Source: a virus (Duplodnaviria > Caudoviricetes). From it: a stretch of 54,697 nt of DNA. The stretch spans positions 1 through 54,697 of the IMG/VR virus record IMGVR_UViG_3300037286_000119, one strand, 5' to 3'. The stretch's first letter is position 1, and every line of letters begins with the position of its first letter. The notes under the pieces were generated by a model. The model did no database searches. It saw only the letters and a program-made list of their open reading frames with translations, and was not told the DNA's origin. A program made the position numbers and the translations under genes. Below, in pieces: positions 2,772-54,067 of this stretch.

Positions 2772-5341
2772 GCCACCATCCCAATATCAGATTCAGAAAC
2801 AATGCCGCCCTTCTGGAACACGAGCGAATGATCAGCCATAGCCTGGCACTCCGGTATATGGGAAATAAAGAACAGCTTTTCAAAATTTCCCTGAACCATT
2901 AAAGCCCGGTACATCTGGATAAATCTCTCGGCCTTCTCTTTGTCTAGGGCGCCGGATTCCTCGTCCGCAAAGCAGGTCGCAAAATGGATGCCGGACTTTT
3001 CAGTATTGACCAGGATCTGAGCCGCCTTAAATGCCTGCAATATCCACACGGATTCCCCGCCGGAAAAATCACAGAGAGAATATGTTTTTCCATCTTCCCT
3101 GGTAATCATGATATCCAGGATCTCGGCACCGGTTTCCGGGTCCTGGGTGATCAGGTCAAGGTAAAATTCGCCACCATAGGCAGCGTGAAGCAAGTCGTTT
3201 GCTATTCCGGTGAGCAGAGGGGCGGCCGCCGAAATTTCCAGGGCCTGCAGTCCGGACTTTGAAACAGCATCCCGGATATAGGACCATTTGGACAGCTCTT
3301 CCCGGATAAAGGATTCCCGTGATTTTAACCGGGCTATTTCTTCGATATCCTTGGCCGCTGCCTTGGCTTTGTCTTCAAGTACTGCAATCGTTTTCTCTAT
3401 ATCTGAGGCTTCCCTGACTGCGTTTTTTAAGCCGATGTCTGTATGGGCCATGGACTGATTTGACAGGTCAATGTCAATTTGAATATCAGCCTGAGTCCTG
3501 GCAGGCGTAATCATCAATATTTCTGCCGACAGGGGAGCGGCGTCCAGTTCAAGTTTTTCAATCTTCCTCTGAATATCGGAATCACCCAGAGCAAAGGCCT
3601 GGTTCTTTTCAAGGATCGATTTTTCAAGTAGACCGAGTTTTTGTTCGGCCAGTTCTAATTCAGGTTTTTTGTTTGCCAGGGCTTCGAGGTCTGCGATCTT
3701 GCCGGGGACATCTTTGAGCTTTGTATTCACTGCCAGATATGCTTCAGACAGGGCGGCCTTCCCTTTTTCAAGGCCTGCTTTTTCTGAGAGAAGTTCCGCT
3801 TCTTCCTCTGAAAGTTTTTTCAGGTTTTCCTCGGCAAGTTCTTTTTTGTCTTCCCTTTTAATCAACAGGGATGCCAAGTTCATTTCAGTGTTTACGATGG
3901 ATGATTCCCATGCCACCAAGGCCGGTTTTGTTTCGGTAATCAGCCCTTGATTCTTTGCGATAGCATCCGCAATCTCCTTTTCCTTTGCAGGTTTCATGGA
4001 AATCTTTTCAAGAGCATTTTTGATAAACGGGCAGGCGTCTATGAGGCAAGCGCCCGGCCGGAGTGCCAACAGGGATTCAGCGGCCTTGAATTGTTCAAGT
4101 TCTTTCTGCATGGCTTTGATTGCCGGATCATCGGAGATGGCAGCAATCCTGGTATTCAGTTCTGCAATCTTTCGTTCGGTGTTGGCTTTCTCATCGTTGA
4201 GGGCCTTGATCTGTTCTTCAAGGCTTTTGAGTTCGGGGTCATTTTCGATGTTGAGCCGGTCGGTTTTGATGTTTGCAATGGCCAGGTCTATCCCGGATAT
4301 TTTTTCTTTGAGGCCGTTGCCCTTAACGGTTACGTCATTGAGTTCATTCCTGAGCAAAGAATCGTGCAATTTAAGCTCTTTGATACTCTGTGATGCAGTG
4401 AGGATCATTTCTTTCTGGTCTACCAACTCATGCAGGGGGGCCGTTTCCTCTGCCATTTTCTCAATCCATTCATTGTGCAGGCGCACAACCTCGGCCTTTT
4501 CTGCCCGTAAGCTGATGATCTGGTCCGTGATGGCCGCAAGCTGCTTATTCTTTTCAGCAAGGACGGCCTCTTGTTTTTGGGCTTCTGCTGATTCCTGGGC
4601 GAGCCTGGACAATTCTTCCCGGATGGCAGCGGCCTTTCTTTCAAAACCTGAAATTTCCGTTTTTTTGACATCAACTGAGGCCAGGTTCTCTTTCAATGAT
4701 GTGGAGTTTCTCAGGATTTCCTCTTCCCGTGTCGAATAATATTCCAAATCCCTGAGAACTTCGGAGAGGGCGCTTTCACACTCTTTGATACAGGCCCCGG
4801 CATTGTGCCAGTATTCATTGTATTTTTTCAGACCAAGGAGTTCTATCAACAGGTTTTTAAAATCTCCCACTGTCAAGTCTGTCAACTTTTGTCCACCCTG
4901 ACAGCTAAAAATGGATGAATAAAACAACTTCTCGCTCCCGAATAGCTCAGACACCACCCGCTTATATTCGCTTATTTTCCCCTTAACCATGGGCGCCCCG
5001 TCGCAAGTTATATATCCTTCCGGGGACATGGTTGTGCCTGCCGGGATCTCAACCCTGAAAACATACTTTTTGCCCTGGTGGAGATAACATACTTCTTTGT
5101 ATGAGTCCCGGAGCCGGAATTGCTTTTTGAAATTGTATTTCTGAGGGTTCTTTTGCTGTCGGCTGGGGAACAACGGGAAAGGGGAAAGCATTTCCATAAA
5201 TGTTGTTTTCCCCTGGCCATTGTTCCCGGCCAGGTTAATCAGGCCGGAAAGGTGTTCAAAATTGACGGCAATCTCATCCACGCCCAGGCCGTAATGGATG
5301 CCGTATGATCCTTTTACTTTTATATATTGCAGGTTTGCCAT
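2768..5341 (-). CDS. sbcC: SbcC/Rad50-like SMC ATPase
   Basis: Walker A GNNGQGKT, long coiled coil with central Cys pair (CLIDAC, zinc-hook-like), signature FSGGES, Walker B FADEESGALD, H-loop ISH. Confidence 0.9.
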   Translation of the reverse strand: MANLQYIKVKGSYGIHYGLGVDEIAVNFEHLSGLINLAGNNGQGKTTFMEMLSPFPLFPSRQQKNPQKYNFKKQFRLRDSYKEVCYLHQGKKYVFRVEIPAGTTMSPEGYITCDGAPMVKGKISEYKRVVSELFGSEKLFYSSIFSCQGGQKLTDLTVGDFKNLLIELLGLKKYNEYWHNAGACIKECESALSEVLRDLEYYSTREEEILRNSTSLKENLASVDVKKTEISGFERKAAAIREELSRLAQESAEAQKQEAVLAEKNKQLAAITDQIISLRAEKAEVVRLHNEWIEKMAEETAPLHELVDQKEMILTASQSIKELKLHDSLLRNELNDVTVKGNGLKEKISGIDLAIANIKTDRLNIENDPELKSLEEQIKALNDEKANTERKIAELNTRIAAISDDPAIKAMQKELEQFKAAESLLALRPGACLIDACPFIKNALEKISMKPAKEKEIADAIAKNQGLITETKPALVAWESSIVNTEMNLASLLIKREDKKELAEENLKKLSEEEAELLSEKAGLEKGKAALSEAYLAVNTKLKDVPGKIADLEALANKKPELELAEQKLGLLEKSILEKNQAFALGDSDIQRKIEKLELDAAPLSAEILMITPARTQADIQIDIDLSNQSMAHTDIGLKNAVREASDIEKTIAVLEDKAKAAAKDIEEIARLKSRESFIREELSKWSYIRDAVSKSGLQALEISAAAPLLTGIANDLLHAAYGGEFYLDLITQDPETGAEILDIMITREDGKTYSLCDFSGGESVWILQAFKAAQILVNTEKSGIHFATCFADEESGALDKEKAERFIQMYRALMVQGNFEKLFFISHIPECQAMADHSLVFQKGGIVSESDIGMVA

Positions 5342-5676: not shown

Positions 5677-7034
5677 TATGCCACCTCTCTTTCTTTCTCA
5701 ATTTCGTTGACGATTACAGCCGGTTTGTCCTGATTAAGCCGTGCCTGACAGTATTTAACCAGGTCGGCCGGGCTCATAGCCTCCACATTTTCCAGCATTT
5801 CAAACACGCCGGCCGGCACGGGCTGGCTCCGGTGGTTGGCCAGGGCACGGACCTTATCAATCAGGGTTTCGGCTTTGATAATTTCTTCTTCCCGGGAATT
5901 CTCCCGGCGCACTCGTTTAATTTCGAGGACAACATTGTCGGCCCCGGCTTCTTTGATGGACTGTTTCAATGCGGATTGGTTGATCCTGCGGATATCATCT
6001 ATCCAGAGAGTTATTTTCACCTTTGCCCAATATCCGGGTTTCTCCTGACCGCCATTGTCCAGGATGTCGGAAACCACCCGCTGGATAAAATTTTCTTTGA
6101 TCAGGTCCGGATCAGAGACACAGTTATAATCCACCTGGATCATTTCCCGGGTGGGGGTCTGAATAAATTCATGCAGGTCCGGTTCATTGTCGTCGCAGAT
6201 ATCGTGGACGTAGAATCCCTTTGCCATCCCTTGCTCTCCAAAATCCTTTCTAAAGATGGACCCGGCGTGGAAAGCTTTTTTTCCGGCAGGGAGAGCATAT
6301 TCCTGAGCGTAATGGATATGGCCGAGAAGGCAGATATCGGCCAGAGCCATGGAAAGAGTCTCGGTATCAATGGCAATGTCTGTGCCGGGGAGGGTTTGAG
6401 TTTCGGAAATCTTTGAACCCTTCATTGAAAAATGTCCGTTGAGGACGTGAATTGAATCATATCCGTTAGCCATAACCCCAAAGCTTGCAAATATAGACCC
6501 CATGGCCTGGGCTATGTTTTGATTATCGATTTCGGCGCCTTGGCGGTTTTTCCAATTCTCTTTGGTCGGTGGAGGGATCTGCGTGACGATCATGACAATT
6601 TCCTGGTTCGGGATCATAACCGCTTCCATATCCTCTGCCGTCACCCAGGAATAAACATGGTGGGCGGGGACTATTTTGTTCACAAGCTGAGACCTGAGAT
6701 AAATCTGCTCAGGCTTTGTGCTGACATGGATAGGATTTTTCCCGGAGACATATTTCAGGAGTTCCGGCGTCTGTCCATCGTGGGAAAATGTCCCACAAAC
6801 GACGGCAACCGGTGCGATATCCGATAATTTCCGGAACACGCTGGATATCATCTTTGCCGACTTGGTATCGGCGGCAAGATATTGGCTGTTTGTCACGTCC
6901 CCTGAACAAATAATCACGTCAGGGCGTTTTTGTTCAGCGGTTTTAACCATAAAATCAAGACACCGCTGAATTTCTTCACTGTTTTTTTCTTCTGCATGAA
7001 CGTCGGCAAAATGCAAAATTCTTGTTCCCATCAT
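5676..7034 (-). CDS. sbcD: SbcD/Mre11-like metallophosphoesterase exonuclease
   Basis: HFADVH, SGDV, GTFSHD, LLGHIH, HAGS motifs; adjacent to SMC ATPase. Confidence 0.9.
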   Translation of the reverse strand: MMGTRILHFADVHAEEKNSEEIQRCLDFMVKTAEQKRPDVIICSGDVTNSQYLAADTKSAKMISSVFRKLSDIAPVAVVCGTFSHDGQTPELLKYVSGKNPIHVSTKPEQIYLRSQLVNKIVPAHHVYSWVTAEDMEAVMIPNQEIVMIVTQIPPPTKENWKNRQGAEIDNQNIAQAMGSIFASFGVMANGYDSIHVLNGHFSMKGSKISETQTLPGTDIAIDTETLSMALADICLLGHIHYAQEYALPAGKKAFHAGSIFRKDFGEQGMAKGFYVHDICDDNEPDLHEFIQTPTREMIQVDYNCVSDPDLIKENFIQRVVSDILDNGGQEKPGYWAKVKITLWIDDIRRINQSALKQSIKEAGADNVVLEIKRVRRENSREEEIIKAETLIDKVRALANHRSQPVPAGVFEMLENVEAMSPADLVKYCQARLNQDKPAVIVNEIEKEREVA

Positions 7035-8946: not shown

Positions 8947-9306
8947 ATGAAAAAGGCAATCATTTTATTTTTGATATTCCCGGGGTTGCTTTGGGCTGGT
9001 CACCTTCACCCCGAAAAATGGTATCAGGATAAATGGTGTGCTGAAAATGGCGGGCGTGCTGAGGTGGTCTTGCAGGATCAAACCCGGTGTGATTGCATCA
9101 CGGGAATGAACGCCGTTGAGGTGGACTTTGCCCGGAAATGGTATGAGGCAATAGGACAATCTTTATATTATGCCATGCTGACCGGGAAGAGGGCGGGAAT
9201 TGTCCTGATCATTGAATCAGAGGACGATATGAAATATTGGAACCGGATGAAGGCGACCATTGAGCATTTCGGGTTGCTGGTGGATTGTTGGAGAGTAAGC
9301 CCTTAA
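8947..9306 (+). CDS. Signal-peptide-bearing protein with PD-(D/E)XK-like nuclease motifs
   Basis: N-terminal MKKAIILFLIFPGLLWA; RCDC...AVEVDF...WYEAIGQSLYY pattern resembling the restriction-endonuclease-like fold. Confidence 0.6.
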   Translation: MKKAIILFLIFPGLLWAGHLHPEKWYQDKWCAENGGRAEVVLQDQTRCDCITGMNAVEVDFARKWYEAIGQSLYYAMLTGKRAGIVLIIESEDDMKYWNRMKATIEHFGLLVDCWRVSP

Positions 9307-9572
9307 TCGCACCCACATGATGGGCTAAGTGTCCCGTCACAGCATTTCGCACGGCCTCCTTGACAGCCGCAGACTCCGCCATGATGAGAACAGCATCCCC
9401 TTTTTTCTACCACTACTTCCTTTTCAGGAATTCTATCTTCGTTTGTAGATACTGCAATTTGGGCCGGCTCTGTTTTTTGGGTCGGCTCCGTGCCTGATTT
9501 TGTGGGTTCTTGGGCAAAAGCGATATTGCAGGTAAGAAATACAAAAAAACAGAAATAATGAAAATTTTTCAT
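9303..9572 (-). CDS. Small secreted cysteine-rich protein
   Basis: Signal peptide ending AFA; C-terminus RGCCSHHGGVCGCQGGRAKCCDGTLSPSCGC. Confidence 0.75.
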   Translation of the reverse strand: MKNFHYFCFFVFLTCNIAFAQEPTKSGTEPTQKTEPAQIAVSTNEDRIPEKEVVVEKRGCCSHHGGVCGCQGGRAKCCDGTLSPSCGCD

Positions 9573-9611: not shown

Positions 9612-10253
9612 TCACTGTATATTTTTTGATTTGTTCTTGAATCCATCGTTCATTTTCAGACCAATTGAAGTATGAAAAAGAGGAAAGCCCACGAGAAGTA
9701 GAAGATTTATAAGACTTGATATATCCATTCGCTCTATCATTATACCCACAAAACAAAAGATTACCGTATATATTTGAGCAAATAGCATGGCCAGCATTGT
9801 TCCAGTTGCGTCTGGTCCATCATATTTTGCCATATAAGAAAGCGGAAACATTGCCGTAGAATAGCCAAATAGAAGAAACGGAACAAGATTGTGCCCATCA
9901 GATTGCCTTACAAACATGGTAACGATAATTAATATCCAAAAAGCAATGATGCAATAATTGATAAAAGAACCGATAAAGCCAATGATTCTTGGGAATAAAG
10001 GAATTCCACGCTGCCCAAGTTTCATTCCAAGCAAGCTAATTCCGGTGCCAGGTAAAAGTATTAATGAAAAAAGTAGTGCAGGAAAAAAAACTGTGAGACC
10101 AAAACCAATCAGTACAAGTTTCCATTTTCCAAGAATTAGTAACCATATACCACCGACAATGCCTGAAGAAAAATTTAAAAGAAACAGTGGAATTGTCAGC
10201 ACAATTGCTACGGCGCCTAACGCATCAATTATGCTTTCTTGTATCTTTCCCAT
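9612..10253 (-). CDS. Multi-pass membrane protein (moron)
   Basis: About 6-7 hydrophobic segments, AT-rich; start at MGKIQ with GGGAG RBS. Confidence 0.75.
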   Translation of the reverse strand: MGKIQESIIDALGAVAIVLTIPLFLLNFSSGIVGGIWLLILGKWKLVLIGFGLTVFFPALLFSLILLPGTGISLLGMKLGQRGIPLFPRIIGFIGSFINYCIIAFWILIIVTMFVRQSDGHNLVPFLLFGYSTAMFPLSYMAKYDGPDATGTMLAMLFAQIYTVIFCFVGIMIERMDISSLINLLLLVGFPLFHTSIGLKMNDGFKNKSKNIQ

Positions 10254-10286
10254 AATCACTCCCGAATACATTGGATAAATACTTCC

Positions 10287-10679
10287 CTATCCAGCATCCT
10301 CCCTGAAATATCGTTTATAAAAATTCCCGGAAGCCGCCAGTAAAAACCGCTTGCGCTTGGACCGGTCAGCCGGGTTGTCATACACCTCATGAACGGCAAC
10401 CATTGAATTATCTATTTTCTGAATCAGCCACAAAAAAGCAAAGTCCCCAACAGAATACGAATGCCATGTATGGCCGTTTTCAAAAGCCCTTCGGATGGCC
10501 TGGGCGGTTGACACTGATTCCCCCGGCGGCATGAATTCCAGGATACTTTTTCCCATGATCGAGCTTTTATCAAATGCATCCATGCTCTCCTGTCTTGAAA
10601 AAGTGAGCCTTAAATCATGATCGAAATAATGAACATTGTAACCATAGCCGGACCTCAGCGGGATCGTGGCCGCTTCCAC
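10287..10679 (-). CDS. Stand-alone PAS-like domain (possibly fused to the repressor by -1 frameshift)
   Basis: VHYFDHDLRLTF...IMGKSILEFMPP...AIRRAFENG matches the PAS_4-type pattern; starts 2 nt after repressor stop. Confidence 0.65.
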   Translation of the reverse strand: MEAATIPLRSGYGYNVHYFDHDLRLTFSRQESMDAFDKSSIMGKSILEFMPPGESVSTAQAIRRAFENGHTWHSYSVGDFAFLWLIQKIDNSMVAVHEVYDNPADRSKRKRFLLAASGNFYKRYFREDAG

Positions 10680-10681
10680 AC

Positions 10682-11161
10682 TTATTCCCCCTGGGCCTCC
10701 GCCGGGGGTTGGGGTTCGCTTTTTAACGTTTTCACTTTGCCCTTTATTCTACCGACAATAGCATAAAACTCTTCACTATTAAGCTGTTCAAGCTCTATCA
10801 GGTTTTGGTTTACTTCATACCCAGCCACCTTGTCTTTAAATTTTAAAGTTAACGCCTGGTGGTCTTGTTCGATTTTGTCGAAGGCATATATATTATTTTC
10901 TGCCTTCTTGCCATCTATTATATTTTTCCCTAATTGTAAAAAAGATAAATAGGTGTGCCCGCATACGTTAGCTATTTTGGTTTGGCTTTCAAAAGGGATA
11001 GGCTTTTCCCTTTTTGGGTTTAAATACCGGCTGATAGTCCCCTCTTCCGTTTTTAACCCGAGGGCCAATATTTTTTGGGCTGGGTCTTTGTTTTTTTTCT
11101 TCTCAGCAACCCAACCGTTTAGAGCCGCCATAAAATATTTATATGCAAGATCTTCTTCCAT
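10682..11161 (-). CDS. CI-like repressor (HTH, no S24 peptidase domain)
   Basis: QKILALGLKTEEGTISRYLN HTH; divergent from cro-like gene. Confidence 0.75.
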   Translation of the reverse strand: MEEDLAYKYFMAALNGWVAEKKKNKDPAQKILALGLKTEEGTISRYLNPKREKPIPFESQTKIANVCGHTYLSFLQLGKNIIDGKKAENNIYAFDKIEQDHQALTLKFKDKVAGYEVNQNLIELEQLNSEEFYAIVGRIKGKVKTLKSEPQPPAEAQGE

Positions 11162-11189: not shown

Positions 11190-11258
11190 ATTAGGAAATA
11201 AAAAAACTTGTCAATAAGACAATTTTTTATTGACATATACTTTCCGATATGACAAGTT
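11190..11258. promoter_or_regulatory. Lysis/lysogeny switch region of prophage 1 with candidate operators
   Basis: Divergent TTGACA boxes (11209-11214 minus, 11230-11235 plus); palindrome TTGTC-N5-GACAA at 11208-11222, a related site at 11241-11255; inverted repeat AACTTGTCA/TGACAAGTT. Confidence 0.6.
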
Positions 11259-11480
11259 ATGACCATGGAACCCATAAAACAAAACATAGCGGCTCAGAAA
11301 TTAAAAATATCTGAAGGGCATCTAAGCCATATATTAGCAGGGAATAGAAATTGTGGCCCCAGGCTTGCAAAACAACTTTCCGAAATGACAAGAACTACCA
11401 TAGAAACATGGCTGTTTAATTCAAAAAAAAATATATCAACCAGACAACGGGCCTTCGACCAGCTCAAGGGGGCCGCATAA
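11259..11480 (+). CDS. Cro-like HTH protein
   Basis: QNIAAQKLKISEGHLSHILAGNR XRE HTH, 73 aa. Confidence 0.8.
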   Translation: MTMEPIKQNIAAQKLKISEGHLSHILAGNRNCGPRLAKQLSEMTRTTIETWLFNSKKNISTRQRAFDQLKGAA

Positions 11481-12188: not shown

Positions 12189-12317
12189 ATGCTCGAAGAA
12201 TACCAGAAGGCTGAAAAATTTTCAGAAAGGCTTATAAAAATTTTACCCTGGGGATTATTGTTTTTTCTCTCCGGGCTGTTTGCCGGGTACGCCTGGGCAC
12301 TGAAGCATTTCACATGA
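12189..12317 (+). CDS. Small membrane peptide (42 aa; not in ORF track)
   Basis: AAGGAGG RBS; MLEEYQKAEKFSERLIKILPWGLLFFLSGLFAGYAWALKHFT; ATGA overlap with next gene. Confidence 0.6.
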   Translation: MLEEYQKAEKFSERLIKILPWGLLFFLSGLFAGYAWALKHFT

Positions 12318-17675: not shown

Positions 17676-19367
17676 ATGCCTGTCACCGAAAAATTAAAAG
17701 ACGCTCGTGATATCGTTAAACATCTTGAGGGCGAGCGCCAAAGGACCGAAGACCAGGATGCAAAGATAATCTCCGAATATCTTTTGCCACATCGGGGCTT
17801 TTGGCCGTCCGATGGTGATGATAAGACCACAATCCTGCAAAGGGGCAAAAAGAACATCAACCCGGCCGCCACCCTATCCCTCGAAAGGGCTGCCGGTGGA
17901 TTAACCGTGGGTATGACGCCAGAGGGGTTGCCCTGGTTTGAATTAAGGACTCCTGACAAAAAGCTCATGGAAGCCCCTGGGGTCCGTGAACATTTATCAG
18001 ACAGAACCGAAAAGATAGGTGCCATTCTCCGGGAAGGCGGTTTTTATCAGTCAATATATGAATTCAATATCGAATTGCTTGGATTCCCGGGAACGCTTCT
18101 TTACGGTGATTCAAGTCAAGAAAAAATAGTCCGGTTTGAATCCTGCACTTTTGGGACTTACGCCATTGCTCTGGACGATGAGGGAAATCTTGACACGGTT
18201 GTCAGAAGGATAAAAAGATCAGCCAAACAGCTCAAGAAAAAATATGGTGAAGACAAGCTCTCGCAGTCCACCAAAGAGCTGCTTAAAACCGCACCATACA
18301 CCCTCGTTGACATCATCCATCTTGTAAGGCCCAGGGAAGACCGGGAGCATGGCAAGATAGATTCCAAAAATATGAAGTACCAGTCTATCATATATGAAGA
18401 ATCTTCGGCAAATGATGGAGCCGATGTTAAGGATATTCTGTCCGAATCAGGATACCATGAAATGCCGTACTTTTTCGGTGTGTATTCCAGGTGTGGTGGA
18501 TCCGAATATGGGATGTCGCCAGGGCATTTGCTGATTGGGCACACGAAACAACTCAACGAAACCGAGCGTCAAAAACTCATAGCCCTTCAAAAAATCATTG
18601 CGCCTCCAATGAAAAAGCCAGCCAATTTTAAAGGGCGGCTTGATGTGGGACCAAATGCAGAGAATGCTGTTTCATCGGCAGACCCGAAAGGGGTCTCTCC
18701 TCTTTATGAGGTTCCGGTCCAGGGATATCAATATGCTTTGCAGGAGATCCAGGACGTTATGCAGCGCATAGCAGCGGTTGCAAAGGCGGATTTGTTTTAT
18801 GATCTCCCGGCAGAGATGAGGCCGAAAGACATGACGGCCACAGAATATATGGAACGCAAAAGGGAGCGGATGCAGCAGATAGCTCCGGTTGTGTCCATTT
18901 ATGAGCCCTATGTTCTGGATAAGGTCATAGAGCGAGTTCACAACGTCCTTGACCGGATGGGCGCTTTCGGGGAGCCTCCACCTGTCCTGGTAGAGGCCGG
19001 AGCCATAAAGATTGAATATGTTTCAACGGTTGCAAAGGCATTGAGGCAAGTGGGGGCAGAGGCCACCAGATCATTACTGCTTGATGTCAAGGGCCTCGCA
19101 GAAATCCAGGTTATGGGCGGAGGTCGGGCCACGGTACTTCATAAAATTGATTTTGCACAGGCCGTTGATGAAATTGCTTCTGGGGTTGGTGCCCCGGCCA
19201 GGATTGTTAGAGATGACGCAGCCTATGAAGAGTTGATTGACGCTGAAAACAAAGCCCTCGCAGAACAATCTCAAAAACAGGAACAGCTTGCCGCCATGGA
19301 CAGCGCCGCAAAATTGGGGAATGTCAGAAATGACGGAATAATCGGGGAGGCTTTAAAGCAAGCATGA
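17676..19367 (+). CDS. Portal / head-to-tail connector (T7 gp8-like)
   Basis: 563 aa; YLLPHRG, TPEGLPWFEL, YGMSPG, MTATE, IEYVS motifs of podovirus connectors. Confidence 0.9.
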   Translation: MPVTEKLKDARDIVKHLEGERQRTEDQDAKIISEYLLPHRGFWPSDGDDKTTILQRGKKNINPAATLSLERAAGGLTVGMTPEGLPWFELRTPDKKLMEAPGVREHLSDRTEKIGAILREGGFYQSIYEFNIELLGFPGTLLYGDSSQEKIVRFESCTFGTYAIALDDEGNLDTVVRRIKRSAKQLKKKYGEDKLSQSTKELLKTAPYTLVDIIHLVRPREDREHGKIDSKNMKYQSIIYEESSANDGADVKDILSESGYHEMPYFFGVYSRCGGSEYGMSPGHLLIGHTKQLNETERQKLIALQKIIAPPMKKPANFKGRLDVGPNAENAVSSADPKGVSPLYEVPVQGYQYALQEIQDVMQRIAAVAKADLFYDLPAEMRPKDMTATEYMERKRERMQQIAPVVSIYEPYVLDKVIERVHNVLDRMGAFGEPPPVLVEAGAIKIEYVSTVAKALRQVGAEATRSLLLDVKGLAEIQVMGGGRATVLHKIDFAQAVDEIASGVGAPARIVRDDAAYEELIDAENKALAEQSQKQEQLAAMDSAAKLGNVRNDGIIGEALKQA

Positions 19368-19663
19368 GTTCAGATCAGGCCGTTAAAACATATTTGATTG
19401 ACCTTAAAATGGTTTCCGATAAGCCGGAAGGACAGCGGGTCTTTATCTGGATACTGGATCAGCTCGGGACGTTTGACCCCTCTTGGACACCCAAAAACCC
19501 GGAGCTTGCCAAAGCGGCTGTCTTGAGAGATTTCGGACAAGCCCTGCTTGATGATATTGCTGTTGCCTCATCCGAGGCCCATGACGCTATCGTTAAATCT
19601 ATGAGGATCAGCCGGACGGCTGGTTTCACCAATAGACTTTTTAAAACAGAAGAAGGAGAATAA
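19364..19663 (+). CDS. Small conserved head protein (Bbp19-like)
   Basis: PEGQRVFIWILDQLG...RDFGQALL; located between portal and scaffold. Confidence 0.65.
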   Translation: MSSDQAVKTYLIDLKMVSDKPEGQRVFIWILDQLGTFDPSWTPKNPELAKAAVLRDFGQALLDDIAVASSEAHDAIVKSMRISRTAGFTNRLFKTEEGE

Positions 19664-37089: not shown

Positions 37090-38259
37090 TTATAGCCGGT
37101 CAGGGTATCCGATGACTCTTTTTTCTTCTGGTTTGATATCTTGTTCCTTGGATTCAAAATCATCCAGTGCGTTTAATCCACGCCCGGTATTCATATCAAC
37201 TATTGATTTCAAATATACGTCTGTTGTTGAAGCTCTTTTGTGCCTCAGGATGCGCTGCATTTCAGCAACGGAATACCCGCAATTCAGGTACAGATGAGCT
37301 GCGACATGATGCCGGATGGCCTGGAAACCAAAAGACTTTATCCTCTCATCAGCCTTTCTGTTTTTATTGAGTTTCTTAATGATCCTGGGCATAATATTGT
37401 CGAGGGTGCTCTTTGACAGCCGCCCGGATTGTTCGGACGGGAAGATATATTCACTGTTTGCTATCCTGACCCTTCGGTAAAGGATTTCATAAAGGCTGTT
37501 GTTCATATCCACGCTGCCGCGGTCAATGGATCCACCCTTTCTTTTTCTCGTTGAAAACCACACTTTCCTGTTTTCAAAATCACAGTCAGAGCATTTTAGA
37601 CGCCTAAGTTCAATGGATCTGGCAAGTGTGTGATATGCCGTTCGGATCAGGTCTTTCTCAAACGCCCAGGCAGATTCTATTACAAGCTTGATATCCTCAG
37701 GTGGCGGGACATACTTTTTGAACTCTTCCTCTTCGAATTGTTCAATCGGAGTGGTTGGGTTATCTGAAATATACTTACGATTCATCATCCATGTGAAAAT
37801 GGTGTTGAATTCACGAAGAGACCTGTTGGCCTTTTTCCCGCCCTGAATTTTATACTCATTGGTAAGATATGATTCGAGAGTGACGGTTTGGATAGGGAGA
37901 TACGGATCATATCCACAAAAGCTGATAAAATTCCTGATCAGCCTGGCTTTGTATTTAAGGGTTTCCCGACCCTTGAATCTTGGTTCGGACAGGTTTAGAT
38001 ATTCGGTTGATACCTGAGAGAAGGTTAAACGGATCGTCGGGGATACCTGTGTGGAAACGATTAAGTCCCAGTGCTCCGTTTCCCACTGGGTCGCATCCCT
38101 CTTTAATGCAAACCCGGCTTTCGATTTCCGGTAAAGGAATGTGTCCGGGTCCGGTTCCGTCCAATTTTGAAGGCGTGCAAGGTGAGCTAAATGGTTGCCT
38201 TGAATTTTTTTCCGGACTGAACCGACCCACCATTTTCGTTTTTGATCGTAGGATGGCAT
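37090..38259 (-). CDS. int: Tyrosine recombinase / integrase
   Basis: TLARSIELRRL, FQAIRH, ILRH, TTDVY catalytic pattern; adjacent to att; start set at MPSYD. Confidence 0.9.
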   Translation of the reverse strand: MPSYDQKRKWWVGSVRKKIQGNHLAHLARLQNWTEPDPDTFLYRKSKAGFALKRDATQWETEHWDLIVSTQVSPTIRLTFSQVSTEYLNLSEPRFKGRETLKYKARLIRNFISFCGYDPYLPIQTVTLESYLTNEYKIQGGKKANRSLREFNTIFTWMMNRKYISDNPTTPIEQFEEEEFKKYVPPPEDIKLVIESAWAFEKDLIRTAYHTLARSIELRRLKCSDCDFENRKVWFSTRKRKGGSIDRGSVDMNNSLYEILYRRVRIANSEYIFPSEQSGRLSKSTLDNIMPRIIKKLNKNRKADERIKSFGFQAIRHHVAAHLYLNCGYSVAEMQRILRHKRASTTDVYLKSIVDMNTGRGLNALDDFESKEQDIKPEEKRVIGYPDRL

Positions 38260-38446
38260 TTTGCCTTTCCGTATAATCTCTATAGTACATATAATCCAGC
38301 ACGTGCTCGACATTAAACCTTGCTGATTTCGCAGTCCTGCCAAGCCCTATAAAGACATGTGGATACAAATGCCATGTCTTATATAATGTCTGCATAGAGC
38401 ATTTCAATACCTTAGAAAGCTCGTTTATGTCAATAAGAGCTACCAA
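37955..38446 (-). CDS. xis: Excisionase-like HTH protein (long out-of-frame overlap with int)
   Basis: LIDINELSKVLKCSMQTLYK...ARFNVEHV winged-HTH pattern immediately upstream of int. Confidence 0.6.
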   Translation of the reverse strand: MVALIDINELSKVLKCSMQTLYKTWHLYPHVFIGLGRTAKSARFNVEHVLDYMYYRDYTERQNAILRSKTKMVGRFSPEKNSRQPFSSPCTPSKLDGTGPGHIPLPEIESRVCIKEGCDPVGNGALGLNRFHTGIPDDPFNLLSGINRISKPVRTKIQGSGNP

Positions 38447-46915: not shown

Positions 46916-47380
46916 ATGAAAAAAATTGATCTGAGATTAGATTTTGACAAAATAAGGTCCAGGATAGATCTTGAAAGAGAAAGCTATAAACCTGGTGCTT
47001 GGGCTGAGCTTATCGGTGTTTCACTCAATGTGGTTTCCAATATTCACGGAAAAACGAAGCAAAATCCATCCTTGGAATATATCGTTGCTGTATCAAAGGC
47101 CACCGGCAGATCAGTTGATTATTATCTCTTTGGCCATGATCAGGAATCACCCCAGCCCCAGAAGAAAGAATATTCAAAAATCACCAAGGTCATTATCGAG
47201 CACCAGGATATTGTGAAAAAATTCAAAAATCCTGAAATAGCAAAAGCAATGAATGAAAAGCTGCTTGAGATAGAGGCGGCCGATGCGGAGCTTTTTAGTA
47301 AAGCGGATGCTTATATCCAGGGCCTTCATGATTCAATAAAGACATCAAAAAAAAAGAAGACAAAACGATCTACAGGCTAA
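46916..47380 (+). CDS. CI-like repressor (HTH, no S24 peptidase domain)
   Basis: WAELIGVSLNVVSNIHG...PSLEYIVAVS...SVDYYLFG XRE HTH; divergent from cro. Confidence 0.85.
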   Translation: MKKIDLRLDFDKIRSRIDLERESYKPGAWAELIGVSLNVVSNIHGKTKQNPSLEYIVAVSKATGRSVDYYLFGHDQESPQPQKKEYSKITKVIIEHQDIVKKFKNPEIAKAMNEKLLEIEAADAELFSKADAYIQGLHDSIKTSKKKKTKRSTG

Positions 47381-47742
47381 ACTCTCGGGCCGATTTTTCA
47401 CGGAAGCCCGATCGACTGCCGGACACGGTGGCCATTGTAAATATGGCAGGGGTGATTTTAGGAGGATACAAATTGAAACTCAGACGACATGAAATCCTTT
47501 TCGATTATGTCTCATCTTCCTGCAATGTCGGTGTCCTGAAGACGGCCCTGGCCAGCGCCACGGAAATCAATCCCCAGGACGTGGAAATTGGATTCAGATA
47601 CAGCAGCCGGAACCAGCAATACTTTTGCCGGATTTTTCGGAACATCGATTGCTATTTGATCGGCGGGTGGCAGCTCCCCAAAAACCTGATCTATTTCCCC
47701 GGCCGCTCGAACGCAATCAACAACGGATCAATGGAAAACTGA
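47332..47742 (+). CDS. PAS-like domain in -1 frame of repressor (open from 47332; first start codon GTG 47428)
   Basis: LPDTVAIVNMAGVIL...LFDYV...LKTALASATE...YFCRI resembles a divergent PAS fold; no convincing RBS. Confidence 0.5.
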   Translation, partial: FNKDIKKKEDKTIYRLNSRADFSRKPDRLPDTVAIVNMAGVILGGYKLKLRRHEILFDYVSSSCNVGVLKTALASATEINPQDVEIGFRYSSRNQQYFCRIFRNIDCYLIGGWQLPKNLIYFPGRSNAINNGSMEN

Positions 47743-50570: not shown

Positions 50571-51290
50571 TCATTCCTTGAGAGTGCCAAGAGATGTATT
50601 GGCCGTTCCGACAGCCGTGGCCTTTGCGGATATGGACGCTGATTGCGAACACGTTCCGACACTGGGGTGGGTGTGTGTTGCCAGAATATCCAGGGCGTCC
50701 TTGATATTCGCAAGGGCGCTGGTGATCAGGGGCAGGACGCTCGGGCCGCCATTTGGGGCACCCATCACAATGGTGGGGGCTGTAATCCTGTAAACCTTGG
50801 CGGTCGTTGATTTTTCATTTCCGGCCGCATCATGAATATCTTTATCGGTTTTTCTCTCCCAGTTGCTGTCCGGGTCAACGGTTTGATGCACGCCCGGCCG
50901 TTGCTGCCATCGGCCCATATCATCGGGCACGGCAGGCAGAGACAGCCCCATGGGATAAACATGCTGGATCACCGGGTGATCCGGACGGCCTTCGATCCAC
51001 CGGACCGTGACAATGGTTCCCGGCCGGGGCCACAGGAAAAACCCTTCATCCGGCCCGGCTGCAAGAACGGGCAGGGGAACGGCCTCATACTTTGGAAAAC
51101 CGGGCGCCGGTGTGCCTTCCGGTGTCATGATTTCGATATCCGCAGCCCAGTATGGCCTGAAGCGGTTGCAAATGACACCCTCGGCCGGGGGATCGGAAAT
51201 TTTCAGGATCCTGGCATACCGGTCCAGATGATACCCGCCGGACAGCTCCGGAAACATTCTTAAAATGATTCGCTTAACTGCTTCGCGCAT
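50571..51290 (-). CDS. Baseplate spike/assembly protein (gpV-like)
   Basis: OB-fold-like PRPGTIVTVRWIEGRPDHP, C-terminal HTH motif (ATHTHP); tail operon context. Confidence 0.65.
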   Translation of the reverse strand: MREAVKRIILRMFPELSGGYHLDRYARILKISDPPAEGVICNRFRPYWAADIEIMTPEGTPAPGFPKYEAVPLPVLAAGPDEGFFLWPRPGTIVTVRWIEGRPDHPVIQHVYPMGLSLPAVPDDMGRWQQRPGVHQTVDPDSNWERKTDKDIHDAAGNEKSTTAKVYRITAPTIVMGAPNGGPSVLPLITSALANIKDALDILATHTHPSVGTCSQSASISAKATAVGTANTSLGTLKE

Positions 51291-51964
51291 GTCACCACCA
51301 TAAAATGTTCCTTTAATTGAAGACTTGATATGTACATGCCGTTCAGCATCACCCCAGGGCGCAACCCTGGGACGGCCTGCATGGTTTTGGTGCCGTCAAG
51401 CTGCACGTCCTGGAAAAATTGCTCCGGAACGGAAAACGGCTTTCCGGCCCAGCGGCTGTCCTCCCATGATCCAACATAGACCTGCCCGTTGCCTTGTTGC
51501 TGCCAGATATAGTTTTTAATGCCGAATACGGCCCCCAGGGAATCCAGCCCGTGGACCCCGGAGGCCATCGTCTGGAAAGAAGGGCAGGGGGTTACGGCGT
51601 AAGGTTTGTCCGGGATCGCAAACGACAGCCCGGTTTTTCGTGAATAAACGCCCAGAATATCCGTGAGCGATGCATTCCGGATGGATACGGGAATGATGCC
51701 CCACATCACGGAAGAAAGCTCCCGGCAGAAAATCCGCTGCTGGGACCCGTCCACCGTATGGCTGCCGGTAATAAACCCGGTGAAAAATTCCACAGAACCG
51801 CCCTGACCGGCGTCACCAATAGACATCTGCACCACCCCTTTCAGGGCCGCAGCACTGCGGACGGTAAATTCAGCCCGCCCCGGGGTGGACAGATCCAGCC
51901 AGACATGTTCCCGGACAAGCCCCATGGGCTTTCCATCAATGGTTATGGACTTGATCAGCTTCAT
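51260..51964 (-). CDS. Baseplate hub / tail protein (gpD-like)
   Basis: LDLSTPGRA...WQQQGNGQVYVGSW...PGLRPG in HP1/K139-like tail operon order. Confidence 0.6.
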   Translation of the reverse strand: MKLIKSITIDGKPMGLVREHVWLDLSTPGRAEFTVRSAAALKGVVQMSIGDAGQGGSVEFFTGFITGSHTVDGSQQRIFCRELSSVMWGIIPVSIRNASLTDILGVYSRKTGLSFAIPDKPYAVTPCPSFQTMASGVHGLDSLGAVFGIKNYIWQQQGNGQVYVGSWEDSRWAGKPFSVPEQFFQDVQLDGTKTMQAVPGLRPGVMLNGMYISSLQLKEHFMVVTCAKQLSESF

Positions 51965-51965
51965 A

Positions 51966-52433
51966 TCAGAAAAGAAGATTCTCGGCGTTGGCCAGAATTT
52001 GCTTGTATTGGGTCGGGTCAGTGGCCGATATCAGCCCGTTGCTCCTGCTTTCGACCCGCTCCGGATTACTCAGATATTCTTTCAGGCTGAACGAGACATT
52101 CCACATCCTGAGCGCGTCCGCCTCTTCCCAGTTAAACTGCTCGAAAAATCTGACTTGCCGGATCCCGGCCGCATTGGCGGTCAGGTTGGTAATGGTATAG
52201 ATCTTCCTCTCTCCGGATGCGGAAACCGCCTCAGCCGCCTTTACCATGGCGGTCAGATCAAGCGGGGTTTTAAAAGGGATGGATACGGATACGCGCAGCA
52301 CTTTCGGCTTGGTCCCTTTTTCCACCGAATCCGTCCCCGAGGTTTCCCCGGCAATGTCCTCGGTCCGGATCTCAAGGTTTCCCTTCACATTCAGGTTTTT
52401 GCCGGGAATCCGGAAATCGTCAAGCTGCATCAT
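51966..52433 (-). CDS. Baseplate complex protein
   Basis: DIAGETSGTD..EKGTKPK...WNVSFSLKEYLSNPE; context. Confidence 0.6.
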   Translation of the reverse strand: MMQLDDFRIPGKNLNVKGNLEIRTEDIAGETSGTDSVEKGTKPKVLRVSVSIPFKTPLDLTAMVKAAEAVSASGERKIYTITNLTANAAGIRQVRFFEQFNWEEADALRMWNVSFSLKEYLSNPERVESRSNGLISATDPTQYKQILANAENLLF

Positions 52434-52436
52434 GGG

Positions 52437-53009
52437 TTATTCCTGCACCGGCCCTGCAGGCCATGGTATCGGATCAACAATAGTTTCCAGCGTCTCCGGC
52501 AGATCCCGCAATGCCTGCCGGTAGGCAACCCATTGCCCGCGTTGGGTTTCAGTGATGGGATAATCTGAAAGCATATATTTGTCCGTTTCGGCCAGCTTTA
52601 TATCCCGCCCTGGCCTGACAACCTGATCCAGCCAGAGATCATGATCATCCGTCCATCCGACACCGTCCCATACCTGTATCAGTCCGGGCTCCAGATCCGT
52701 CCACCCCGGATCCGGCTCAACCCCTATCTCACTGATTTTATGTCCCTGCTTTGTGGCAATATCCCAGTATTGCTTTTCGCGATAATCCGGCCTCAGCACC
52801 CATTGCCCATCGGCAAGAACCGCCACCTCATTTTCGCCTGCAACCGGTGGCGGATGCAGGGATGATGTCCTGGGATTATAGAGATATTGATCCGCCTCAT
52901 CATGGGTTTCAGGGTTGTACATCGGATTTTCAAAGGCCACGGTGTCATGCCCTGCCAAATATGCAAAAGTTTCTGGATGTGCATTATATAAGGGTTGCAT
53001 CAGTAACAT
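52437..53009 (-). CDS. Tail fibre assembly chaperone (Tfa-like)
   Basis: WVLRPDYR, WDG..W, RDIKLAETD, WVAYRQALRDLP..IPWP. Confidence 0.8.
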   Translation of the reverse strand: MLLMQPLYNAHPETFAYLAGHDTVAFENPMYNPETHDEADQYLYNPRTSSLHPPPVAGENEVAVLADGQWVLRPDYREKQYWDIATKQGHKISEIGVEPDPGWTDLEPGLIQVWDGVGWTDDHDLWLDQVVRPGRDIKLAETDKYMLSDYPITETQRGQWVAYRQALRDLPETLETIVDPIPWPAGPVQE

Positions 53010-54067
53010 ATTCCTCCCCATTTATATCTGTTTTTTGGCCTGGTTTCGTTGCCGCCATTGCTGTTGCTGTATGCCAAAAACAGATTCCCGCTCACATAAT
53101 CAGAATAAAATCCGGATGCGGCCCCAACATCAGCGCTATAGGTATTTATAGAATGGGCATGGGATTTGAACTCATCACCCTGCTTAGACCCCACGTTATC
53201 ACCGCCGATCCCATCTCCCCTGTTTGTGCGTGAAGCTGCATCCGGATCAACTCCGGATGCATGGCTCCAGATCCTCGCAAAAAGCCCCCGGTCATCAGGA
53301 AGATTGAAATGAGTGCTGTCGGCAGCTCCATACATGGTTCCAAGGGCCGCAAACAAATCCGGAAAATCAACCCTGAGCAATGACGCGCCGTTTCGTTCAA
53401 GCATCCGCCTGTCCAGCATTTGCTGCGATGTCGGCACATATGGCAGCATGATCTCATCCCCGGCGCGATAGCCCCTATGCACAAAGCCGTTTTGAACATG
53501 ATCCCGCCATACCTTTGCCTGGGCGTCGGTCAGATGTTTCAGAGTTTCATCATCCGTGCTTTCCGGATTAACTCTAAGAACGGCATGATTTGTTAACTCC
53601 GCAGAAAAATCAAACTGCCATGAATCTGCCGCAATCGATATCCCGGTCAGGGCCTGGGCGTCCTGAAACGCCAGCATCACGTTTCTTGTGATACAGTTGC
53701 CCGTGGTGTTGTTGGCCAGGTTGGTTTTTCGCTTCGGTGTTTCCGGGGTTGTGGTGACGGTGATCACAGTATTGGTAACTGCCTCGATGATCCCGATCCA
53801 GTTGAATGAAAAATCACCCACGTCTGATCCCAGAATCATGGAATAAACCACCTGATCCGGGTTTACATATCCCTTGTGGTCATCATCAATAATGTGGGTA
53901 TGGACAATATGTTCCTGGGCCGGCATCTGCTGGTTGCGGTTCACAGGCTCAGTGGGATCAAGGCCCGGAATCAGGGCCAGAATCATCCGGTCAATGACAA
54001 GGGGTTGTTCCAGCCCGAAAAGCTGATTGATCCGGGTCTGGCCCGTAATGGTAAAGGCGCTGCTCAT
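53000..54067 (-). CDS. Tail fibre protein with collar domain
   Basis: N-terminal VVYSMILGSDVGDFSFNWIG; collar FPDLFAALGTMYG..STHFNLPDDRG; ETRPKN. Confidence 0.85.
   Translation of the reverse strand: MSSAFTITGQTRINQLFGLEQPLVIDRMILALIPGLDPTEPVNRNQQMPAQEHIVHTHIIDDDHKGYVNPDQVVYSMILGSDVGDFSFNWIGIIEAVTNTVITVTTTPETPKRKTNLANNTTGNCITRNVMLAFQDAQALTGISIAADSWQFDFSAELTNHAVLRVNPESTDDETLKHLTDAQAKVWRDHVQNGFVHRGYRAGDEIMLPYVPTSQQMLDRRMLERNGASLLRVDFPDLFAALGTMYGAADSTHFNLPDDRGLFARIWSHASGVDPDAASRTNRGDGIGGDNVGSKQGDEFKSHAHSINTYSADVGAASGFYSDYVSGNLFLAYSNSNGGNETRPKNRYKWGGICY

Follow-up and report, generated by a model that had tools for sequence, protein, structure and literature searches.

In this study, a repressor-sensor locus was analysed in the virus record IMGVR_UViG_3300037286_000119 (Duplodnaviria; Caudoviricetes), the 54,697 nucleotides (nt) of which are together called the window. 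In the immunity region of a prophage-like element, the gene of a 159-amino acid (aa) putative helix-turn-helix (HTH) repressor, rep1 (10682-11161, minus strand; TAA stop at 10684-10682), is followed on the same strand by a 130-aa open reading frame (ORF) with a PAS fold (10287-10679), which lies in the -1 frame relative to rep1 and whose GTG start at 10679 stands 2 nt past the repressor stop. The same -1 arrangement is conserved in related loci. For the family, -1 programmed ribosomal frameshifting that joins the repressor to the PAS domain is the best explanation of these sequence comparisons, and we consider its chances to be a little better than even. Frameshifting is favoured because it explains the reading frame, the missing start codons of several PAS domains and the shift-prone heptamers together, with the join at a domain boundary and with standard bacterial motifs. 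The copy in the window is itself a weak example, and there the PAS domain is probably made mainly as a free protein.

The following six independent repressor-to-PAS junctions were compared: the window; the IMG/VR contigs L003 and L004; L005, which stands for three metagenome contigs (L005, L006 and L007) with one common tail and junction that were counted once; and L008 and L010, which were obtained as relatives of rep2, the second repressor of the window. The relatives of rep2 gave L008 (the same as L012), L009 (the same as L015), L010, L011 and L013 (with L014 identical), and two scans of metagenome contigs returned only L005-L007. The PAS domain was in the -1 frame at 6/6 junctions. Moreover, at all six the -1 frame was open back to a canonical in-frame heptamer, which lay within the last 8-29 codons of the repressor gene. 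This heptamer is A_AAG_GGC in the window, A_AAU_UUU in L003, A_AAA_AAG in both L004 and L010, A_AAA_AAC in L005 and C_CCA_AAA in L008. All of them belong to classes described as shift-prone in E. coli in the accessible text of PMC4066793, which also attributes 72% of the heptamers of insertion sequence (IS) elements to A_AAA_AAG/A. A stem begins 7 nt after the heptamer in L004, and an 8-bp stem of -12.9 kcal/mol begins at the same distance in L005; the junction hairpin of L003 is in the top 0.15% of local 45-nt windows. Furthermore, the slip sites coincide with or follow the final helix predicted in the repressor, and beyond them the zero-frame tail is predicted to be disordered. The repressors share 21-39% identity within each of two subfamily alignments, and the PAS domains attached to these two subfamilies are of three sequence types (the window family, L008 and L010) without detectable similarity to one another. 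The domain of L008 was called PAS-like by a language-model search alone, with a score of 0.97 to PAS clusters, and that of L010 was called from matches to PAS_4 (E = 0.0026) and to PDB entry 3fg8 (E = 0.049).

In four of the six junctions (L003, L004, L008 and L010), no ATG, GTG or TTG is present ahead of the first PAS strands; a GTG is found in the window and in L005. The missing starts are not a sign of decay. The only columns without variation in an alignment of 11 sequences (I6, L8, Y14, H17 and Q30) fall within the start-less N-terminal stretch of L003 and L004, and the same stretch corresponds to two core strands in the AlphaFold2 (AF2) model. In the -1 reading of L010, a canonical start first occurs at residue 75, within the PAS_4 match (residues 43-124).

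Two further features of these loci were observed. The last 14 residues of the PAS frame of L010 (about 2825-2869), which end in GGLLVINYEFGHVC, recur at the end of an ORF at 3506-3727 (about 3685-3727), and between the two copies lies a 212-aa ORF (3037-3675) whose N-terminus is hydrophobic; from its sequence, this direct repeat looks like one left by the insertion of an accessory (moron) gene. The zero-frame tails of L011 (2465-2486) and L010 (2530-2558) end alike (KNGTD...), so that conservation extends to the unshifted tail, even with a PAS domain behind it in the -1 frame.

Six junctions that are all in the -1 frame would be expected by chance with a probability of about 0.001-0.004 under random frames. 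As a background, crude longest-ORF gene calling in the window, L003 and L004 yielded 58 pairs of neighbouring genes on the same strand. Half of these (29/58, 50%) were in the -1 frame, mostly through 4-nt or 1-nt overlaps, and the 34 non-overlapping pairs (a gap of at least 0) were split 14/11/9 among the three frames. The combination of a -1 frame with a heptamer in the open zone was found in 4 pairs, 3 of which were repressor modules, leaving 1 of the 55 other pairs. Over seven repressor genes, with L007 dropped as a duplicate tail, shift-prone heptamers were 6.8-fold denser in the open zone than elsewhere (8 per 140 codons vs 10 per 1135; Fisher p = 0.0003).

The initial annotation had proposed a PAS domain at 10287-10679, and structure prediction together with profile comparison confirmed that the ORF has a genuine PAS fold and belongs to a small unnamed family. 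The match to the Pfam family PAS_4 (E = 0.0014, 19.2 bits) was under the curated cutoff of 23.1. The AF2 model, which was built from a 21-row alignment of relatives, reached a predicted local distance difference test (pLDDT) score of 88.4 and a predicted template modelling score of 0.81, and it showed a five-stranded PAS core with a conserved C-terminal helix (residues 103-125). In a Foldseek search of the PDB with this model, 35/35 matches at E <= 0.001 were PAS domains, including 3fg8, PYP, Aer2 and RpfR; in addition, the family profile reached PAS-B of BMAL1/ARNT at E = 1.3e-5. Among 1.84 billion cluster representatives, searched exhaustively with a profile, there were 22 relatives, 20 of which are 84-155 aa long. 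E98 and L113 are near-invariant in the family alignment, as is H97 in the 11-row alignment. Cultured phages contained no match for the PAS domain, rep2 or the L003 repressor, no loci of the PAS family were found in the reference genome contigs scanned, and several scans of viral contigs were likewise empty; few relatives could be retrieved because the family is absent from the cultured phages and reference genomes searched. Two giant proteins, P0008 (2931 aa) and P0015 (4769 aa), matched the family in 9 and 6 separate stretches, respectively (best E = 9e-14), and appear from these matches to carry arrays of the same PAS type.

Gene callers truncated the PAS ORF at an internal Met in at least 6 of 9 close relatives (five at Met33 and the sixth near residue 25). 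Such truncated calls hide the N-terminal strands of the domain, and ordinary gene callers miss recoding of this kind. In the window, Met33 (ATG at 10583-10581) has an AGGAG 3 nt upstream, and it was considered as an internal start. This start is not favoured: a protein begun there would lack two strands of the PAS core, and the site is peculiar to the window, with no AGGAG in L003-L005.

The protein encoded by rep1 appears, by sequence comparison and modelling, to be an XRE/Cro-CI-type HTH repressor, with a putative N-terminal HTH and a helical C-terminal part. Its AF2 model is all-helical, with residues 1-85 predicted confidently, a last helix at 129-147 and a tail that is disordered from about residue 148. 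The best structural matches in the PDB were XRE-family regulators (ClgR, Stl and C-proteins), all of them weak (E >= 0.055). When searched alone, rep1 matched no Pfam or PHROG family, and a k-mer-indexed protein database contained no relatives of it. It could be aligned with four repressors of the related loci, and HTH_3 was matched by 2 of the 5 proteins in this alignment (best 1.1e-6). No peptidase family of Pfam was found among the five aligned repressors, and the C-terminal part of rep1 is predicted to be all-helical. Having no peptidase domain, rep1 is therefore not a cleavable repressor of the lambda-CI/LexA type.

Several observations weigh against frameshifting, in the family as well as in the window copy. 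The sample of sequences is small, with six junctions, and the crude gene caller behind the background counts missed the repressor-PAS pair of L004 itself. A-rich heptamers are present within the last 45 codons of the PAS-less relatives of rep2 (L009, L011 and L013) as well, so that a Lys-rich tail explains part of the heptamer enrichment. The open -1 stretches reach 7-28 codons back from the stop, which looks no longer than expected when the -1 frame of rep1 has a stop about every 13 codons, by an estimate that is not a formal test. In addition, the structures that follow the junction heptamers were unexceptional among 214 in-frame heptamers, with percentiles of 10 for L005 and 33 for L004, and by the same measure the heptamers of L003 and rep2 had no structure following them. 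None of the 22 relatives found among the 1.84 billion representatives was 250-400 aa long, and no in-frame repressor-PAS fusion was seen. A conserved M/V start column is present in 9 of the 20 small relatives of alignment A1 and in P0026, and L005 has its GTG at this column. Finally, the -1 codon that overlaps the repressor stop is ATA at 5/6 junctions and CTG in L004, so that a non-standard restart could also explain both the fixed frame and the missing starts.

The latter points lead to an alternative in which no frameshifting occurs in the family, and the repressor and the PAS protein are always separate products of coupled translation, in which ribosomes at the end of the repressor gene would unwind the junction hairpin and start again near the stop codon. 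The restart would use GTG in the window and L005 and non-standard ATA, CTG or ATT codons elsewhere, and the -1 relation would be the footprint of an ATGA-type overlap. In E. coli, AUA preceded by a G-rich site can initiate translation at a low level, according to the part of PMC4066793 that deals with it. The overlapping ATA is found in the window, L003, L005, L008 and L010, and in L004 the conserved start column is a CTG that overlaps the TGA stop as CTGA. The start column shared by nearly half of the A1 relatives, the lack of an in-frame fusion, the abundance of -1 pairs formed by short overlaps in the background set and the ribosome-binding arrangement of the window copy (see below) are all consistent with this alternative. 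However, bacteria initiate very poorly at ATA and CTG, and reliance on these codons would be required in each of five lineages. Moreover, the G-run is just 1 nt from the ATA in the window and in L003, and the conserved PAS start column lies at offsets of -1, 17, 20 and 41 nt from the stop, which are not those of simple overlaps. Nor does separate translation throughout the family explain why each junction has a shift-prone heptamer where the -1 frame is open. On this evidence, we consider it unlikely, albeit deserving of serious attention.

The anatomy of the window copy was examined separately from that of the family. As stated in the initial annotation, the -1 frame is open from 10748, the A_AAG and A_AAA sites and a strong GC-rich hairpin lie downstream, and the PAS-like ORF begins 2 nt past the repressor stop; all of these coordinates and frames were reproduced. 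The stretch 10680-10748 (minus strand), which covers the final 22 codons of rep1, would supply a fusion with its Pro/Gly-rich linker; the -1 reading is KRTPTPGGGPGGISVEAA, continuing into the PAS ORF, and the fusion would be 291 aa long. ATA AAG, with the A_AAG tetramer at 10745-10742, belongs to the full canonical in-frame heptamer A_AAG_GGC (10739-10745, minus strand; I139-K140-G141), one codon inside the -1-open zone. A_AA.G_GG.C is among the motifs that gave more than 0.1% frameshifting in E. coli without stimulators in the accessible text of PMC4066793. No structure was found beginning 5-9 nt past this heptamer, which is one of the points against a frameshift in the window. The second site, TTA AAA AGC (10718-10726, minus strand), has its A_AAA tetramer at 10724-10721 (K147) and is the slip site on which the initial annotation relied. 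The hairpin (10687-10708, minus strand) has 8 pairs and a 2-nt bulge, with a free energy of -15.0 kcal/mol, and its 3' arm is a GGGGG run. Compared with shuffles of its own GC-rich letters the hairpin was unremarkable (z = 0.09), and among 2652 windows of 45 nt within +/-4 kb it ranked in the top 0.11% when combined with an adjacent small stem. No Rfam family was found at the rep1-PAS junction.

On the basis of these features, the hairpin could be thought to stimulate an efficient slip at TTA_AAA_AGC (K147), which would give a substantial amount of the 291-aa fusion with the GTG as a secondary start. The hairpin is indeed strong and locally exceptional, the K147 site falls exactly at the end of the last predicted helix, and TTA AAA AGC looks like a one-base variant of the TTA AAA AAG of L004 and the TTA AAA AAC of L005, each with a 7-nt spacer and a stem. 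However, AAAAAGC is not an X_XXY_YYZ heptamer, because the Ser tRNA cannot re-pair on AAG, and A_AA.A is the weakest of the six tetramers reported to work in E. coli in the accessible text of PMC4066793. According to the same source, the usual spacing of a stimulator is 5-8 nt, whereas the stem of the window hairpin starts 12 nt after the A-site AAA codon (9 nt after AAAAAGC), and no stimulatory structure was found 5-8 nt past the motif in the window. The role that the initial annotation gave to the hairpin, as the stimulator of the A_AAA slip, is thus not supported by its position. Efficient slippage at K147 appears rather improbable.

In addition, the window PAS ORF has a plausible start of its own, which likewise tells against the fusion. 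A Shine-Dalgarno-like GGGGG run (10691-10687), a 7-nt spacer and the GTG (10679-10677) occupy 10677-10691 on the minus strand, both of them intact, and other genes of the contig have ribosome sites of the GGAGG type. The GGGGG is paired within the hairpin, which is a classical arrangement for coupling and fits translational coupling at least as well as frameshifting; with the Shine-Dalgarno sequence sequestered, ribosomes that finish the repressor gene would expose it. Because the slip signals are weak and the ORF has its own GTG with a hairpin-locked Shine-Dalgarno sequence, the window copy probably yields mainly free PAS protein of 130 aa through coupled translation, with the 291-aa fusion minor or lost. 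The window copy is the weakest case among the six junctions, and its anatomy alone does not favour a frameshift there. The suggestion of a conserved recoding-controlled sensor-repressor module is supported by the related loci, with all six junctions in the -1 frame behind a heptamer and four of them start-less, more than by the weak signals of the copy from which it was drawn. The caveat that had accompanied it, of a separate PAS co-regulator, probably describes the main mode of the window copy.

A third alternative, in which the start-less PAS copies are decaying genes and their common -1 frame and heptamers are due to chance plus Lys-rich tails, might draw on the tail heptamers of the PAS-less relatives and the few junctions sampled, and it is very improbable given that the ORF, of about 115-130 codons, has stayed intact in four independent copies without a start, with their N-terminal residues among the most conserved, and that the uniform -1 frame has the low chance probability given above. 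Transcriptional slippage, which is inseparable from ribosomal slippage in the present data, could act on the longer A-runs of rep2 (9 A) and L010 (8 A), and it was judged improbable on the runs of 5-6 A in the window, L004 and L005. An intrinsic terminator was also considered for the window hairpin and rejected, as the hairpin has no U-tract on the coding strand and the T-run of the other strand lies 7-12 nt from the main stem; a terminator scan gave a single match on the plus strand, within chance expectation (1 found, 1.4 expected).

The second repressor of the window, rep2 (46916-47380, plus strand), is a 154-aa distant relative of rep1. The initial annotation had ascribed the same architecture to this prophage, and a part of that claim was borne out: rep2 contains in-frame A_AAA_AAA and A_AAA_AAG motifs (A_AAA_AAA_AAG; 47347-47356, a run of 9 A), and its -1 frame is open from 47332 into an orphan ORF (47428-47742, plus strand). 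The downstream ORF itself has no PAS signal and has its own AGGAGG-N7-TTG start at 47473. Its assignment as a PAS domain was rejected on an hhalign probability of 0.2%, the lack of a Pfam match, the lack of relatives and a low-confidence Atlas model. L008 and L010, which are relatives of rep2, carry start-less PAS-like domains in the slot after the repressor, and this slot therefore appears to be conserved even though its content in prophage 2 is not PAS.

The window seems to hold two prophage-like elements in tandem. Element 1, in whose immunity region the repressor-PAS locus is placed, has a terminase, a podovirus-type head-to-tail connector (17676-19367) and a 2028-aa MuF-type protein. Element 2 begins at an integrase (37090-38343), carries a primase, a CII-like gene, methylases, and baseplate and tail-fibre genes (50571-54067), and is truncated by the contig end. 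The third gene of the same-strand block of the repressor and PAS ORFs encodes a 219-aa hydrophobic protein (9612-10271, minus strand), and membrane or secreted proteins are also found at this position in relatives. Divergent from rep1 lies a 73-aa cro-like HTH gene (11259-11480, plus strand; phrog_1381, E = 3.3e-6, with a weak HTH_3 match), and three 9-nt perfect inverted repeats with TTGTCA/TGACAA cores between the two genes (11197-11258) are putative operators. The divergent cro-like layout is the same in L003, L004, L008 and L010. The only sequencing runs found for this sequence were two of DNA contigs, one perhaps from the source sample and the other with just an identical 151-nt piece, and their comparison with the window gave no variants.

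Other genes near the cassette were also noted. Just downstream of the membrane protein gene, an 89-aa ORF (9303-9572, minus strand) has a hydrophobic N-terminus and a Cys-rich C-terminal third, with 11 Cys within its last 31 residues. A highly conserved 119-aa protein with a signal-peptide-like N-terminus is encoded at 8947-9306 (plus strand) in the window and at 5696-6055 (minus strand) in L003, and the ORF at 12189-12317 of the window has a close counterpart in L003. The repressors of the window and L003 are only about 24-29% identical. From these comparisons, the window phage and L003 seem to be related yet heteroimmune, with the repressor-PAS cassette swapped as a unit. The portal gene (17676-19367) and the next ORF (19364-19663) form the sole non-repressor pair with a -1 frame and a heptamer among the 58 pairs examined; the heptamer T_TTA_AAG lies in the open zone (region 19330-19370), and with an overlap of 4 nt it may be incidental.

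Frameshifting between a repressor and a PAS domain would resemble several known systems in part. The OrfA/OrfAB proteins of IS3 and IS911 come from a similar layout, with a small HTH protein read in the zero frame, a heptamer of the A_AAA_AAG type towards the 3' end of its gene, in many cases a downstream structure, and a second domain in the -1 frame, in the accessible text of PMC4066793; in the present family, unlike IS3 and IS911, the added domain is a PAS sensor and not a transposase, the locus lies in a phage immunity region, and some members have an independent start of the second ORF. E. coli dnaX and the phage tail chaperones G/GT also use a -1 shift on A-rich or G-rich heptamers to make two products at a fixed ratio, as described in the available portions of PMC5009743 and PMC4066793. 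However, the shifted product of dnaX is shorter and G/GT are structural proteins, and neither system adds a sensor domain to a transcription factor. Frameshifts in life-cycle regulators of mobile elements are likewise described in the accessible text of PMC5009743 and the search entry of PMC5882170, namely FseA of a Mesorhizobium integrative and conjugative element (+1, msi172-msi171) and cro of phage A2 (-1, in E. coli); these two were the only such cases mentioned in the reviews and papers searched. FseA differs in its +1 shift and in being an excision activator, A2 cro differs in that the shift makes a short tail change of uncertain relevance, and neither involves a PAS domain or a CI-side repressor.

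The order of HTH and then PAS is also found in frame in PDB entry 3pxp of Chloroflexus aurantiacus ('PAS and DNA binding domain containing protein'). Unlike the phage locus, 3pxp is a single ORF without recoding; it ranked 50 among the fold matches of the repressor (E = 1.7), the entry title alone was used, and no homology is claimed. Stl of SaPI (Staphylococcus aureus pathogenicity islands) is, like rep1, an all-helical HTH repressor without a peptidase domain, and Stl chains are among the best, albeit weak, structural matches of rep1; Stl is released by phage proteins, whereas the partner proposed here is a PAS domain encoded in the cassette. Isoforms made by frameshifting and HTH-PAS proteins are thus both known, and their combination in a phage repressor is apparently undescribed. 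In the literature searched, no report was found of a CI-side phage repressor frameshifted into a PAS or sensor domain; the supplementary tables of PMC4066793, which list prophage frameshift clusters and were outside this search, might bear on its novelty.

The following functional model is proposed by analogy with OrfA/OrfAB of IS911 and with in-frame HTH-PAS proteins. The immunity cassette of the temperate phage would comprise an HTH repressor without a LexA-type cleavage domain, a dedicated sensor of PAS fold, a membrane protein and an opposite cro-like gene. Near the end of the repressor gene, a fraction of the ribosomes would slip back one base on the shift-prone heptamer, read a short Gly/Pro-rich linker and continue into the PAS domain, so that two forms of the repressor would be present in the cell, one with the HTH only and one with HTH, linker and PAS (291 aa in the window). 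In the window copy, ribosomes finishing the repressor may instead open the hairpin, and most of the PAS domain may be made as the free 130-aa protein. The isoforms OrfA and OrfAB of IS911 have a common interaction region, and their ratio is set by translation. In a similar way, PAS-bearing subunits might mix with the short form of the repressor through the common helical C-terminal part, and repression might answer to a signal sensed by the PAS domain instead of to RecA-dependent cleavage. A complex prediction for rep1 and the PAS protein (alignments A6 and A1) gave a score of 0.01, carries no verdict and was used neither way.

How prophages without a LexA-like cleavable repressor decide on induction is largely open. 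We lean, by little more than an even chance, to the view that these loci represent a widespread and unrecognised class of temperate-phage repressors that exist in two translational isoforms, with unrelated PAS domains plugged into the same recoding slot, such that the switch would read an environmental or metabolic signal, perhaps also the translation state, without RecA cleavage. If confirmed, this would make ligand screening of the PAS family meaningful. If true, bacterial recoding would also have a new functional class, one that serves regulation and not structural proteins or transposases, and the lysis-lysogeny switch would have a new kind of signal input, through a sensor domain gained by frameshifting.

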